A DNA stretch of 64,000 nt, from positions 2,353 through 66,352 of the forward strand of contig PLEW01000175.1 in assembly GCA_003136555.1 (NCBI GenBank), given 5' to 3'. Positions 17,395 to 21,944 of this stretch are shown piece by piece (position 1 is the first letter of the stretch; each line of letters opens with the position of its first letter). Source of the stretch: Planctomycetota bacterium. Its GTDB lineage: Bacteria; Planctomycetota; UBA11346. A model generated the notes under the pieces. The model was given only the letters and a program-made list of their open reading frames with translations. It ran no database searches and had not been told where the DNA came from. A program made the translations under genes and the position numbers.

Positions 17395-17967
17395 ATGATC
17401 CACTTTCTCGCCCTGCGCCTCGCAGATGAGCCGCGCGACCGTCTGGCCATGATCGCCGAACGGCTGCAGGCCTGGCAGCTTCCCGCCGCCTGGGTCCATC
17501 CCGAGGACTACCACCTCACCCTCGCCTACATCGGCGAGCTCGATGACGACGAGGTGCGCGTCCTGCCGCACGTGATCGGCGATGTCGCCGGCAGCCTGCG
17601 GCGGCCGGAGCTGCGCTTCAGCGGCCTGGGCGCGCAGGGCGGGCGAGCCGAACCCCGGGTGGTGTTCGCCGCCCTCGATGACCCGGAGCATGCCTGCGCC
17701 GGCATGCATGCCGACCTGTGCGCGGCCCTCGATCTCCCTGCGCGGCGGCAGTTCTCGCCGCATGTGACCCTCTGCCGCCCGCGTACCAGCGCCGCCCGCG
17801 AGCTGGCAGCCGCGAGCGGCGGGCACGACTGGCCGGGGATGTTCGCAGCCAACGGCCTGGCGGACTGGGGCGCCTGCCCGACCACCGACCTGGTGCTTTA
17901 CCAGTCCGCCGGCCAGCAGCAGATCCGCTACCGCGCCCTGGCGCGCTGGCCGCTGGTGGCGGCATAG
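17395..17967 (+). CDS. thpR: 2H phosphoesterase, RNA 2',3'-cyclic phosphodiesterase (LigT/ThpR)
   Basis: Two HxT motifs (YHLTL, PHVTL) and typical length. Confidence 0.85.
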   Translation: MIHFLALRLADEPRDRLAMIAERLQAWQLPAAWVHPEDYHLTLAYIGELDDDEVRVLPHVIGDVAGSLRRPELRFSGLGAQGGRAEPRVVFAALDDPEHACAGMHADLCAALDLPARRQFSPHVTLCRPRTSAARELAAASGGHDWPGMFAANGLADWGACPTTDLVLYQSAGQQQIRYRALARWPLVAA

Positions 17968-17995: not shown

Positions 17996-18001
17996 TATAA
18001 T
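17996..18001 (+). promoter_or_regulatory. Candidate sigma70 -10 element upstream of the AAA+ gene
   Basis: Perfect TATAAT in a GC-rich background, about 60 nt before ATG 18060, which has an AGAGGA ribosome-binding site. No clear -35. Confidence 0.45.
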
Positions 18002-18059
18002 CCGTGACATGATGCCAGAGGATCGAAGACCGCGGTAACCCGACCCACAGAGGAATCAT

Positions 18060-19208
18060 ATGGTCCATGCCGAATCAGCCGTGCAGCGGGAAGCGCTGGT
18101 CCTCGACCCCCTCAAGCGCTCGCCGCAGGTGACCCGCTTCGAGACCATGCTGCGCGAGCGCGTGGTCGGGCAGATGAGCGCGATCGACGCCATCCTCGAT
18201 TCCTTCTCGAAGATCCTCGCCGGCATACGCAATCCCGAGCGGCCCATCCTCACCCTGCTGTTCCTCGGCCCGACCGGGGTGGGCAAGACCGAGACGGTCA
18301 AGGCGCTCGCCGAGACCATCTTCGGCAAGCGCACCGCCTTCACCCGCGTCAACTGCCAGGAATTCTCAAGCGAATTCACGGTCTCGAAGCTGTTCGGCTC
18401 CCCGCCGGGGTACGTCGGCAACGACGTCGAGCCGATGCTGTCGCAGGACAATCTCGACAAGCACCACAAGGAGGCGCAGACCGAAGGCCGCGGCGTGTTC
18501 GCCGAGGGCGAAGGCAAGATCGCCAAGCTCTTCCCGCAGGTGAAGTCGCACTACATGTCGATCGTGCTCTTCGACGAGGTCGAGAAGGCCCACCCGAAGG
18601 TGTGGAACGCCCTGCTCGGGCTGATGGAGGACGGGCACCTGACCCTCGGCAACAACAAGACCGTGGATTTCACCCGCTCGATCATCGTCATCACCACCAA
18701 TGTCGGCGCCGAGGAGATGAGCGAGACCCTCCGCCACCGGTCGATCGGCTTCGAGGTCAAGACCGAGGCCGAGGCGATCAACCAGGACATCAAGGCCAAG
18801 GCGGTCGAGGCGGCCAAGGAGGTCTTCCCCTACGAGTTCCTCAACCGCTTCGACGACATCATCTGCTTCCGCGTGCTCACCAATCCCGATCTGCGCAAGA
18901 TCCTCAACCTCATGCTGCAGGACGTCTACAAGCGCCTGCTCGGCGCGAATGTGCCGATCATCCTGCACTACTCGTCCGCCTACCTCGACAAGCTCCAGGC
19001 GGAGGGCACCGATCCGCAGTTCGGCGCACGGCCGATGCGCCGGGCGGTCGAGCGCATGCTGGTCGCGCCCCTGTCGCGCCTGATCGCCTCCAATCAGGTC
19101 AAGGCCGGCGACATCGTCAATGTCAGGCTGCGTGCCGGCGTGCCGGCGTTCATCCGCGAGGGGGCGGATCCGAAGAAGGTGGCGGCGGAGACGAAGGTGC
19201 TGCGCTGA
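18060..19208 (+). CDS. Stand-alone Clp/Hsp100 AAA+ ATPase made of the D2 module only
   Basis: Walker A GPTGVGKT, pore loop GSPPGYVG, Walker B LFDEVEKAH, TTN, IGF, EFLNRFD and FGARPMRR. No N-domain or D1. Confidence 0.9.
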   Translation: MVHAESAVQREALVLDPLKRSPQVTRFETMLRERVVGQMSAIDAILDSFSKILAGIRNPERPILTLLFLGPTGVGKTETVKALAETIFGKRTAFTRVNCQEFSSEFTVSKLFGSPPGYVGNDVEPMLSQDNLDKHHKEAQTEGRGVFAEGEGKIAKLFPQVKSHYMSIVLFDEVEKAHPKVWNALLGLMEDGHLTLGNNKTVDFTRSIIVITTNVGAEEMSETLRHRSIGFEVKTEAEAINQDIKAKAVEAAKEVFPYEFLNRFDDIICFRVLTNPDLRKILNLMLQDVYKRLLGANVPIILHYSSAYLDKLQAEGTDPQFGARPMRRAVERMLVAPLSRLIASNQVKAGDIVNVRLRAGVPAFIREGADPKKVAAETKVLR

Positions 19209-20478
19209 GATCACCCTGCGCCCTCTCCGCCTGGACGGTGGCGGGATCTGGCCTGACTGCGCGGCGCAGGCCGGTGTCGCTCCCGTGAGCCTTGCGGTTC
19301 TTGCGCGCGGTGGTGCGCAGAAAGCTGTCGGCGAGTTCGTCATCGACCAGCTCGACGCGATTGCGCCCCTGCTCCTTGGCGCGGTAGAGCGCGGCATCGG
19401 CGCGGCCGATCAGCACCTCGGCGGTCTCATCCTGGTGGCAGGCGGCCAGACCGATGGAGACCGTCACCTGCCTGGGCACGGTGGTGAGCGCTGCGACGCT
19501 GGCACGTAGGCGCTCGGAGACATGCGCCGCGCCCTTGGGGGGGGTGTCCGGCAGGATGACCAGGAATTCCTCCCCGCCGTAGCGGCAGACCAGGTCGCCG
19601 GCGCGCAGATGGCCCATCAGCGCGCAACCGACCGCGGAGAGGACCGCATCGCCGCCGGCGTGGCCGAATTCGTCGTTGACGCGCTTGAAGTAGTCGATGT
19701 CGACCATCGCCACCGCCACCACCTCCCCGGCGTCGACCAGCTCGCGCAGGCGCGCTTCGCCGTACCAGCGGCGGTTGGTCCCGGTCAGCGGATCGATGCG
19801 CGCGAGCGACTGCAGCCCGCCGTAGAGGGTGACCCGGCGCAGGCTGAGCGAGAGCTGGGTGCGCAGGACCTCGGCGACGTAGCGCTGGTCGGCGATGGTG
19901 CGTCCCAGCAGGCTGGGCTGCACCGTGGTCTGGCGCAGCACCAGCGCGGCTTGGCCATCGACCCCGGGACTCAGATCGAGCACCAGGTCGCCGCCATCCT
20001 CCTCCGGCAGCGCCACCGGTCGGCCGAGCACCGGCGCCGGACCGGAGGCCTCGCCGCCGAGGCTGCGCCAGCTGCCGCGCTCCCACACCAGGAGGTCGGC
20101 CTGGGAGCACGACCAGTAGCGCCGCATCGCCGAGGTGAAGCGCACCCGGGCGTCGCCCTCCTCGACGCAGCCCACCAGCTCGGCGCTGACCTCGAAGACG
20201 CCGCGCTGCAGGTCCTGGGCATCCTCGAGCACGCGCAGTTCGTCGGCGATGGTGTGGCGCTTGAGCTCGAGCAGGCGCGGATCGGTGGCCAGGGCGATGG
20301 TCCTGGTGCCGGCCCTGGGCCCGCCGCGCTCCCGGCGGCGCGAGCTGATCGAGGCGAGCGTGCCGCCGAACAGCGCCAGCACCGCCAGCGCGCCGTACAG
20401 CCACGCACCCTGGAGCACCGCCGTGCCGGCCACCGCCGCGGTCAGGGTGATGGGCAGCGAGAGGGCGGAGATCCTCAT
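19150..20478 (-). CDS. Membrane-anchored diguanylate cyclase (GGEEF) with RxxD I-site
   Basis: Two N-terminal TM segments; DPLTG, DIDYFKRVND and RAGDLVCRYGGEEF motifs. Confidence 0.9.
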   Translation of the reverse strand: MRISALSLPITLTAAVAGTAVLQGAWLYGALAVLALFGGTLASISSRRRERGGPRAGTRTIALATDPRLLELKRHTIADELRVLEDAQDLQRGVFEVSAELVGCVEEGDARVRFTSAMRRYWSCSQADLLVWERGSWRSLGGEASGPAPVLGRPVALPEEDGGDLVLDLSPGVDGQAALVLRQTTVQPSLLGRTIADQRYVAEVLRTQLSLSLRRVTLYGGLQSLARIDPLTGTNRRWYGEARLRELVDAGEVVAVAMVDIDYFKRVNDEFGHAGGDAVLSAVGCALMGHLRAGDLVCRYGGEEFLVILPDTPPKGAAHVSERLRASVAALTTVPRQVTVSIGLAACHQDETAEVLIGRADAALYRAKEQGRNRVELVDDELADSFLRTTARKNRKAHGSDTGLRRAVRPDPATVQAERAQGDLSAAPSSPPPPSSDPPPRG

Positions 20479-21791
20479 GAGGCGATCTCGACGCGGTTGC
20501 GGCCGAGGGCCTTGGCCTGGTAGCAGGCGGCGTCGGCACGCTCGAGGGCGGCACGGGCGCTCTCCTGGTTGACGCGCGCCACCGCGATGCCGAAGGACGC
20601 GGTCACATGCAGCTCCGGCTGATCGGCCACCGGCGTGCTCGAGGCGATCGCCTGGCGCAACTGCTCGGCCAGGGCGCTGAGCGCCTGGAGATCGTAGCCG
20701 ATGACCAGGCCGGCGAACTCCTCGCCGCCATAGCGGCAGGCGATCGAATTGGGCGGCAGCGTGCTGGTCAGCGCGCGCGCGACCACGCGCAGGGCGGCGT
20801 CGCCGACGAGGTGGCCGTGCTGGTCATTGAAGCGCTTGAGATGGTCCATGTCGCACATGATCAGCCCCAGGCTGATGCCCTGGCGGCGGCAGGCGGCGCT
20901 CTGCTCCTCGAGGCGGCGCAGGAACTCGTGCTGGCCGAAGAGGCCGGTGAGATCGTCGCGCAGCGCCAGCCCGCGCGCCTGGTTGACCAGGTCGACCGCC
21001 GCCAGCCCGAGGCCGCCGAGGCGTCCGAGCGCGCCCAGGAGCTCGAGCGCCAGCCGGTCGCCGACATCGCTGGTGAGCAGGTTGACCACCAGCACGCCGC
21101 GCAGGGAGTCGCCGGCATCGCGGCCCTGGCGCCGATCGGCACGCAGCGGGATGAGCATGCGCAGGCTGCCGCTCCCGCGGCGGATGAGCGAACGCGCTTC
21201 GGCGGCGACATAATGCTCATCGGCGCCCGCTTCGCGGGCGCAGGGATGGCCGTCGGCATCGCACGACGCCCTGCAGCGCTGCTCCTCCGCCGTGCCCAGG
21301 AAGACCTGCACCTCGCGCACCTCCGGCAGCATCTCGCGGGCACGTTGGCACAGCACGCGGGCGAATTGATCGAGCTCGCGCGCCGCCGACATCTCGAGGC
21401 AGGCGTCGAGCAAGGCGGGATAGCGCTGAATGTGGCGGTGGAGCAGGGTGCGTTCGTGCTCGGCGTCGCGCAGCTCGGCGCGCAGCATGCGCAGGCTCTC
21501 GCCATCCGGCATCAGCAGCAGGCGGATGACCAGGGTGGCGGCGAAGCCGCACACCCCCCAGGCGACCAGCGCCTCCCAGCCGCCCCAGGGCGAGAGCGCG
21601 AGGATCGGAGCCGAGAGCGCCAGCGCCGGCAGACCGAGGCTCTGGATGCCGGCGCAGGCCCAGACGGCGCACAGCGCCCCCGCCAGCGGAGCGGGCAGCC
21701 CGGGCTGGATCAGTCCGAGGGCGGCGCTGGCGGAGCAGGCGATCGAGAGCGCCAATACCTGCACTGCGGAACTGCGGACCGGATCGGTCAT
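20475..21791 (-). CDS. Membrane-anchored diguanylate cyclase (GGEEF) without I-site
   Basis: Hydrophobic N-terminus, GAF-like middle region; DDLTG, DMDHLKRFND and PPNSIACRYGGEEF motifs. Start ATG 21791; its stop overlaps the next start (ATGA). Confidence 0.9.
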   Translation of the reverse strand: MTDPVRSSAVQVLALSIACSASAALGLIQPGLPAPLAGALCAVWACAGIQSLGLPALALSAPILALSPWGGWEALVAWGVCGFAATLVIRLLLMPDGESLRMLRAELRDAEHERTLLHRHIQRYPALLDACLEMSAARELDQFARVLCQRAREMLPEVREVQVFLGTAEEQRCRASCDADGHPCAREAGADEHYVAAEARSLIRRGSGSLRMLIPLRADRRQGRDAGDSLRGVLVVNLLTSDVGDRLALELLGALGRLGGLGLAAVDLVNQARGLALRDDLTGLFGQHEFLRRLEEQSAACRRQGISLGLIMCDMDHLKRFNDQHGHLVGDAALRVVARALTSTLPPNSIACRYGGEEFAGLVIGYDLQALSALAEQLRQAIASSTPVADQPELHVTASFGIAVARVNQESARAALERADAACYQAKALGRNRVEIAS

Positions 21792-21944
21792 GGCAGCCCA
21801 TCGTGCGCACTCTCCCCTGAGCGGGCAAGTGGAGAGCGTGCCTCCGGGCCGGCACCGGCGATTGCCGCGGGGACGCACCGGCGTACCCTGCCTGGCACGC
21901 TCGGCGTTGGCGGATGCCAACCTCGGCTATCGGAGGCGCCTGCC

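Follow-up and report, generated by a model that had tools for sequence, protein, structure and literature searches.

A single-module, D2-type Clp/Hsp100 ATPase from uncultured Planctomycetota as a candidate partner of ClpP

A 64,000-nucleotide (nt) stretch of a Planctomycetota genome (contig PLEW01000175.1, assembly GCA_003136555.1; "the window" below) carries a gene for a 382-amino-acid (aa) Clp/Hsp100 AAA+ ATPase, in which the second AAA+ module (D2) of the two-ring Clp enzymes stands alone. The protein retains the ATPase and pore-loop residues of that module, has an IGF tripeptide on a predicted flexible loop of the kind that docks Clp ATPases on ClpP, and belongs to a family marked by a 30-aa insertion after the pore loop. 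On these features we infer ClpP binding, and we think it probable that the protein is an additional single-ring unfoldase that works with ClpP.

Domain content, IGF loop, and insertion

Two Pfam families account for the protein: AAA_2 (PF07724; 136.9 bits versus a cut-off of 27), a single match that the insertion breaks into two stretches, and ClpB_D2-small (PF10431; residues 273 to 355, 64.6 bits versus a cut-off of 21.9, E value of 8.5e-18). Weaker, generic AAA matches cover the same residues. The Pfam scan of the protein identified no Clp_N domain, first AAA+ module (D1), M-domain, or ClpX zinc finger, and only ~25 residues lie ahead of the AAA+ core. This bears out the first-pass annotation, which had read the protein from the DNA letters alone as an isolated Clp D2 module and had listed the same four elements as absent. 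The segment ahead of the core is the counterpart of the D1-to-D2 linker in two-ring Clp enzymes: its LDP motif lines up with the ClpC and ClpB linker helix, and in an alignment of 15 family sequences (identity down to 51%) L15 does not vary and D16 shows at least 90% conservation. An AlphaFold2 model predicts this segment to be ordered, with a predicted local distance difference test score (pLDDT) of ~87.

The Walker A, Walker B, GYVG, Arg finger, and sensor-2 elements, previously described as intact, are all present (Table 1). Their catalytic residues are all invariant in the 15-sequence alignment; N214, GYVG, and F171 are also invariant across a 116-member family alignment, of which two stretches were tabulated for conservation. 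The Arg finger segment aligns with the LNRxD of ClpB and ClpC. By sequence, the protein is a complete and constrained D2-type motor.

Translation confirmed exactly the SIGF that had been placed at 18741-18752. Across the 116 family members the tripeptide is IGF in 101, VGF in 9, LGF in 3, MGF in 2, and ICF in 1; that is, [IVLM]GF is kept in 115, while the flanking residues vary and the positions directly after it reach 2 to 3 bits of entropy. G230 and F231 are invariant in the 15-sequence alignment. In the AlphaFold2 model, residues 222 to 235 (pLDDT of <50) lie between helices 217-223 and 237-255, giving a flexible helix-loop-helix. When we aligned 14 sequences of this and other Clp types, the SIGF column held TLGF in the ClpC of the same genome, SVGF in a Carnobacterium ClpC and in a ClpE-like protein, RVGF in the ClpX of the same genome, and GVGF in a ClpA (a Nitrospirae clade-mate of which scores 1117 bits, enough for the ClpA equivalog cut-off); the ClpB loop is shorter and without the motif, and ClpV has none. 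The presence or absence of an LGF-type loop is an accepted marker separating ClpP partners from ClpB (PMC10149685). In the ClpC1P1P2 structure the loop is mostly invisible, and only its LGF motif is ordered, in a ClpP2 pocket (10.1101/2025.02.28.640722); the predicted disorder of the IGF loop fits that picture. The earlier reading of IGF as a docking-type motif was thus upheld by a position shared with the ClpC, ClpA, ClpE, and ClpX loops and by conservation amid variable flanks. By position this would be the docking loop, and the tripeptide is under strong constraint.

The insertion lies between the pore loop and Walker B and fills 30 gap columns relative to ClpC, ClpA, ClpB, ClpE, and ClpV in the 14-sequence alignment. 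The first-pass annotation was correct that residues are inserted after the pore loop, but its length of about 35 aa was not borne out; alignment to ClpC, ClpA, ClpB, and ClpE gives 30. Conservation of the insertion among the 116 members matches that of the catalytic core: it holds three invariant residues (A139, G145, and F147) and two nearly invariant ones (H135 and H136), and immediately before it P125, L127, and Q129 are invariant. Several of its residues are also invariant in the 15-sequence alignment. AlphaFold2 predicts a confident helix (residues 129 to 142), a glycine-rich loop (EGRGVFAEGE), and a short helix (residues 153 to 157). Reasoning from its position after the pore loop, we consider that the insertion is most likely located on the surface that in two-ring enzymes meets D1 and that is exposed here. 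Its strict conservation and the predicted helix-loop-helix suggest that it may replace the substrate- or adaptor-binding domain, as had been proposed.

The model as a whole (mean pLDDT, 78.8; predicted template modeling score, 0.74) shows the canonical large and small subdomains. Its top Foldseek matches (E values of ~1e-26) are crystal structures of the second nucleotide-binding domain (NBD2) of ClpB and the D2 rings of ClpC-ClpP and ClpC1-ClpP1P2 complexes; the nearest PDB sequences are the D2 modules of Staphylococcus aureus and Bacillus subtilis ClpC and of Streptomyces and Mycobacterium tuberculosis ClpC1, as well as Thermus thermophilus ClpB NBD2. In NCBIfam, the strongest matches cover only the C-terminal third of ClpB, ClpK, ClpA, ClpG, and TssH, and all fall far below their cut-offs (257.6 versus 1232 bits for ClpB, 198.5 versus 993 for ClpA, and 180 versus 885 for TssH). 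The protein scores 19.3 bits with the ClpX model TIGR00382 (cut-off, 371), 28.8 bits with the ClpX model PRK05342 (cut-off, 359), and 15.8 bits with the HslU model TIGR00390 (cut-off, 362). The C-terminal tail (residues 372 to 382; 19173-19205) is predicted to be disordered; in most family members it has a semi-conserved hydrophobic-hydrophobic-basic end (VLR, VIR, VVR, VAR, or LVK) that is neither HbYX nor HslU-type.

Table 1. Features of the clp gene, its product, and its 5' flank (positions in the window; invariance refers to the 15-sequence alignment unless stated)
Feature	Position	Strand	Remarks
TATAAT hexamer, perfect; possible -10 element	17996..18001	+	Read from sequence
Shine-Dalgarno-like GAGGAA, 4 nt before the ATG of the clp gene	18050..18055	+	Read from sequence
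Single-module (D2-type) Clp/Hsp100 AAA+ ATPase gene	18060..19208	+	382 aa, ATG start; open reading frame list and Pfam
N-terminal LDP motif, residues 15-17; segment corresponding to the D1-to-D2 linker	18102..18110	+	
Walker A GPTGVGKT, residues 70-77	18267..18290	+	G70, P71, T72, G73, G75, and K76 invariant
Pore-1 loop GYVG, residues 117-120	18408..18419	+	Invariant in 116/116 family members
Clade-specific insertion, 30 aa, residues 130-159, DNLDKHHKEAQTEGRGVFAEGEGKIAKLFP	18447..18536	+	
Walker B VLFDE, residues 169-173	18564..18578	+	D172 and E173 invariant
Sensor-1 TTN, residues 212-214	18693..18701	+	T212 and N214 invariant
Presumed ClpP-docking flexible loop, residues 222-235	18723..18764	+	pLDDT <50; IGF (residues 229-231) at nt 18744-18752
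Arg finger R263 in NRF (FLNRFDD)	18843..18851	+	N262, R263, and F264 invariant
D2-small (lid) domain	18876..19124	+	Pfam ClpB_D2-small
Sensor-2 GARP, residues 322-325	19023-19034	+	G322, A323, R324, and P325 invariant

Distribution and phylogeny of the family

Full-length homologs of the same size, which we sought in a word-indexed search (7,986 matches; sizes and identities from the top 120), are plentiful: more than 100 of the top 120 matches are proteins of 370 to 430 aa, with 51 to 100% identity. Many are found on long contigs, of up to 452 kb, and the named sources are metagenome-assembled genomes (MAGs) of Planctomycetota. The order to which the source genome belongs consists of a single family; among its 48 MAGs (61 to 96% complete), 36 carry the gene, in one copy each and without internal stops, at 63 to 100% identity. 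A phylum-wide sample yielded it in 19 of 301 genomes, with 13 of 16 in the same family and 6 of 285 in other families. The gene is therefore close to core in one uncultured planctomycete order, where it is inherited vertically, and its relatives elsewhere are scattered. No relative of >40% identity was found on phages or plasmids. Family members are currently annotated generically as "ATP-dependent Clp protease ATP-binding subunit" or "AAA family ATPase," and NCBIfam has no model specific to the single-module family. Among published bioinformatic work, the closest parallel is ClpI, a class of two-ring enzymes from Actinomycetota (PMC10149685).

Nothing in the DNA points to a lost D1. The upstream frame, where such a loss had been suggested as something to look for, holds two in-frame stop codons within 75 nt of the ATG and then a LigT-like gene; a query made of the ClpC N-domain and D1 found nothing within the window and, in the genome, matched only the intact clpC, clpB, and clpV/tssH-like genes, leaving no orphan D1. 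The gene lies ~20 kb into a 70-kb contig. Same-size homologs, near-core distribution, the missing D1 remnant, and a position outside the two-ring D2 clade (below) agree with the earlier view of a distinct lineage rather than a truncated clpC.

Relatives extend beyond the insertion-bearing proteins. An exhaustive HMMER search of 1.84 billion representatives, of which the top ones were analyzed, returned many more single-module proteins of about 340 to 440 aa. The pore loop and Walker B are separated by 36 residues in some single-module proteins and by 12 to 19 in others, compared with 8 to 10 in two-ring enzymes. An xG[FYL] loop is present in 58 of the 60 complete single-module relatives among the top representatives, and two are without the motif. 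A pattern search drawn from the 15-sequence alignment picked the generic strings KLxGxPPGY and LFDExEKA; ClpB and ClpC dominated its results, which missed the planctomycete family and included the acidobacterial relatives. Where the genome is named, insert-less single-module genes come mostly from Acidobacteriota: such loci were seen in Acidobacteriota MAGs (L014-L023, L025, L031, and L074) and in Binatia (L027). The insert-less proteins (385 to 425 aa) share an N-terminal L-D/N-P, a P-x-L-T-Q (P-x-L-S/T-Q) after the pore loop, and an xGF loop, and appear to be a large, uncharacterized sister family. The database also contains giant proteins of 4,189 to 7,819 aa (P0150, P0151, P0159, and P0197), each with at least one Clp-D2-like module, and a 637-aa protein (P0133) that joins a 230-aa N-terminal region of unknown nature to an insert-bearing D2 module.

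We built an unrooted IQ-TREE phylogeny (LG+C20+F+G4 with posterior mean site frequencies [PMSF]; 106 sequences, 363 columns, ClpX excluded; support as ultrafast bootstrap/Shimodaira-Hasegawa-like approximate likelihood ratio test). The 34 two-ring D2 modules (ClpA, ClpB, ClpC, ClpE, and ClpV) lie on one side of a 100/100 branch of length ~0.85, and all 72 single-module proteins lie on the other; the branch attaches to the two-ring subtree among ClpC lineages. All insertion-bearing proteins, including the query, form one clade (100/99). ClpB and ClpV form a 99/99 clade, which fits a docking loop that was lost only once. In a quick tree with ClpX as the outgroup, the ClpX branch was 5.9 changes per site long and fell inside the insert-bearing group, and an approximately unbiased (AU) test did not reject the grouping of single-module proteins with ClpC against the rest (P = 0.70, with a higher likelihood). 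Because of that long branch and the AU result we rebuilt the tree without ClpX and make no claim about its root; the data are compatible both with a clade ancestral to the two-ring enzymes and with one derived from an ancient ClpC-like protein. The robust conclusion is that the protein did not arise by recent truncation of a modern ClpC.

Clp complement and gene neighborhood

The source genome (5.9 Mb, 86% complete) encodes two ClpPs. One gene, clpP1 (283 bits), adjoins clpX on contig C77 in a canonical clpP-clpX operon. The other, clpP2 (contig C210:4595-5043, minus strand, outside the window), consists of two intact halves with an "NN" scaffold gap between them, at which ~30 codons including the active-site serine region are missing; the intact state of the two halves points to a break in the assembly and not to a pseudogene. 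The genome also carries clpC, clpB, and a clpV-like gene, and no clpA was found in the 86% of it that is represented. The single-module protein is 34% identical to the D2 modules of its own genome's ClpC and ClpB. The ClpV/TssH-like protein is a two-ring ATPase of ~930 aa without an xGF loop (contig C252:~22.5-25.3 kb); similar ATPases occur in a related planctomycete and an acidobacterium (L115 [G310] and L116 [G302]), and their presence hints at type VI secretion-like systems. In the tree these three ATPases group together within ClpB (100/100).

In three diverse family members, the surroundings of the gene are unlike each other and unlike the window: the neighbors are Mfd and flagellar genes in one; nucleotidase, bactofilin, and EIIA genes in another; and thioredoxin and HflX genes in the third. 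Because these neighborhoods are mutually unrelated, the gene acts as a stand-alone unit. In the relative with the bactofilin gene, a distant family member (P0116; L009/L010), it is convergent with a group of bactofilin, zinc-ribbon, and phosphotransferase system EIIA-type genes, an arrangement not conserved in other relatives.

As for expression, the first-pass annotation had credited the gene with its own TATAAT and ribosome-binding site. Both the TATAAT and the GAGGAA are there; a promoter of its own is weakly supported, because the 5' flank has no −35 hexamer to match the TATAAT and a consensus scan gave no full σ70 site. A consensus scan for terminators likewise found none for the clp gene, including between it and the convergent GGDEF genes described next.

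Within the window, a gene of the LigT-like 2H phosphoesterase/2'-5' RNA ligase family (17395-17967, plus strand) ends 92 nt upstream on the same strand; this pairing is not conserved in the three relatives examined. Downstream, two tandem GGDEF diguanylate cyclase genes on the minus strand (19150-20478 and 20475-21920) have 4 nt in common, and the first of them is convergent with the clp gene, their 3' ends overlapping by 59 nt (19150-19208).

Possible functions and comparison with known systems

As a ClpP partner, the protein would work as follows. Six subunits would assemble into one ATP-driven ring, whose GYVG pore loops would draw a substrate polypeptide through the central channel; on the opposite face, the flexible [IVLM]GF loops would dock in hydrophobic pockets of ClpP (ClpP1 or ClpP2), and the ring would deliver unfolded substrate to the peptidase, as with ClpX, ClpA, ClpC, and ClpE. 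The 30-aa helix-loop-helix, with its invariant Gly-x-Phe in the loop, may recognize, gate, or grip substrates or an adaptor, which would add a further substrate-selection channel to a cell already holding ClpX, ClpC, and ClpB.

To our knowledge, every ClpP partner characterized so far is ClpX or one of the two-ring, class I enzymes (ClpA, ClpC, and ClpE), and ClpX is the only single-module partner known, with which the open-access literature agrees; searches of that literature found neither a D2-only ClpP partner nor a D2-only architecture described. If the proposal is true, a one-ring enzyme with a ClpC-type D2 motor would be an added class of ClpP partner, and it would offer a minimal natural system in which to study the contribution of D1 and the N-domain and the choice of substrates in their absence. 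Members of the family abound in uncultured Planctomycetota, with relatives in soil Acidobacteriota, and its deep, well-supported split from the two-ring D2 modules bears on the origin of two-ring Hsp100s. A broader version, which we offer tentatively, is that the insert-bearing and insert-less proteins together form an ancient, hitherto unrecognized class of ClpP partners, sister to the two-ring D2 modules and perhaps similar to a one-ring ancestor that had yet to gain D1. In the insert-bearing clade, the insertion with its invariant Gly-x-Phe would then serve as a small entry gate or auxiliary gripper like the HslU I-domain, replacing the N-domain and D1.

Several points weigh against a role with ClpP. 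We infer both ClpP binding and the formation of a hexamer without D1, and our assignment of the insertion to the entry face comes from reasoning rather than measurement. The conserved hydrophobic tripeptide could serve another partner. No conserved operon partner (clpP, an adaptor, or a substrate gene) is linked to the gene in the three relatives examined. Finally, the genome already has recognized ClpP partners in ClpX and ClpC, so the need for an extra one is not obvious.

We hold a ClpP-independent role to be rather unlikely: the protein could be a single-ring unfoldase, disaggregase, or remodeler like CLPB/Skd3, whose xGF loop and insertion bind some other partner or the subunits of the ring itself. 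Peptidase-free single-ring machines of D2 type do exist (CLPB/Skd3, a distant PDB match, is one), linkage to clpP was absent from the neighborhoods examined, and the two single-module relatives without the motif imply that the ring can exist without it. However, the peptidase-free ClpB and ClpV have lost the motif, whereas this family keeps it in all but one of its 116 members while the flanks drift, and no alternative partner is co-conserved.

It is improbable that the protein is a regulator or competitor, capping ClpP via IGF to modulate ClpXP and ClpCP or mixing into ClpC D2 rings. The conserved IGF loop and the coexistence of ClpX, ClpC, and two clpP genes would suit such a role, but the ATPase and pore-loop residues are all invariant, arguing for a translocating motor over a passive cap, and mixed rings are unlikely because of the low identity to the genome's own ClpC and ClpB D2 modules and the long branch that separates them.

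We give very little credence to a mobile antiphage defense component of the DolB or PDC-M37B type, systems that use ClpB-like ATPases. PADLOC does return weak matches (102 bits for PDC-M37B and 79 bits for DolB), but they are partial, mainly over residues 22 to 122, and score far below the match to the ClpB/ClpC D2 module (258 bits); there is no conserved partner gene in the three relatives examined, inheritance is vertical and single-copy, and the phage and plasmid search was negative as stated above. Membership of either system is largely excluded by the partial matches and the unconserved neighbors.

An assembly-truncated or decaying fragment of clpC or clpB, which only the domain content would favor, is refuted by the gene's position well inside its contig, the upstream stop codons and LigT-like gene, homologs of the same length in dozens of genomes, intact clpC and clpB genes elsewhere in the genome, and the placement of the protein outside the two-ring D2 clade.

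Among known systems, the protein is most like the D2 modules of ClpC, ClpA, and ClpE. It has the same fold and Pfam domains, belongs with them to the ClpABC-CTD family of the HCLR clade at 35 to 40% identity, shares their Walker A and B, GYVG, sensor-1, Arg finger, and sensor-2 GAR, and has an xGF on a helix-loop-helix at the same alignment position. It differs from these enzymes in being without an N-domain, D1 ring, and M-domain, in its 30-aa insertion, and in family substitutions (NCQEF for DMSEY, an invariant W182, and TLGNN for LTDxxG). With no D1, scores below the equivalog cut-offs, and a position outside the 100/100 clade, it falls outside the class I two-ring enzymes (ClpA, ClpB, ClpC, ClpE, and ClpV).

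Like ClpX, the protein is of the single HCLR AAA+ ring type, with an IGF-type loop in the same column and the combination of AAA_2 and ClpB_D2-small; unlike ClpX, it is without a zinc-finger N-domain and scores only 19 to 29 bits with the ClpX models, and ClpX itself sits on a long branch. HslU is likewise a single-ring HCLR unfoldase, and its I-domain is inserted between GYVG and Walker B, which we take to be the same topological site as the 30-aa insertion. The I-domain is far larger, at ~130 residues versus 30 here, and the protein falls short of the HslU model. HslU docks HslV via its C-terminal tail, not an IGF loop. The eukaryotic proteins human CLPB/Skd3 and the torsins show that a lone D2-type module can work as a ring without D1. 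Human CLPB/Skd3 (E value of ~1e-29 as a distant PDB match) differs from the planctomycete protein in having an ankyrin-repeat N-domain and no ClpP-docking loop and in working without a peptidase.

The insert-less Acidobacteriota-type proteins are similar in size, share the L-D/N-P and xGF features, and fall on the same side of the 100/100 split; they are without ~24 of the insertion residues, are 35 to 41% identical to the query, and form a separate sub-clade. With the ClpP-partner class as a whole, the planctomycete protein shares a hydrophobic-Gly-Phe tripeptide on a predicted disordered loop, in a genome that encodes ClpP.

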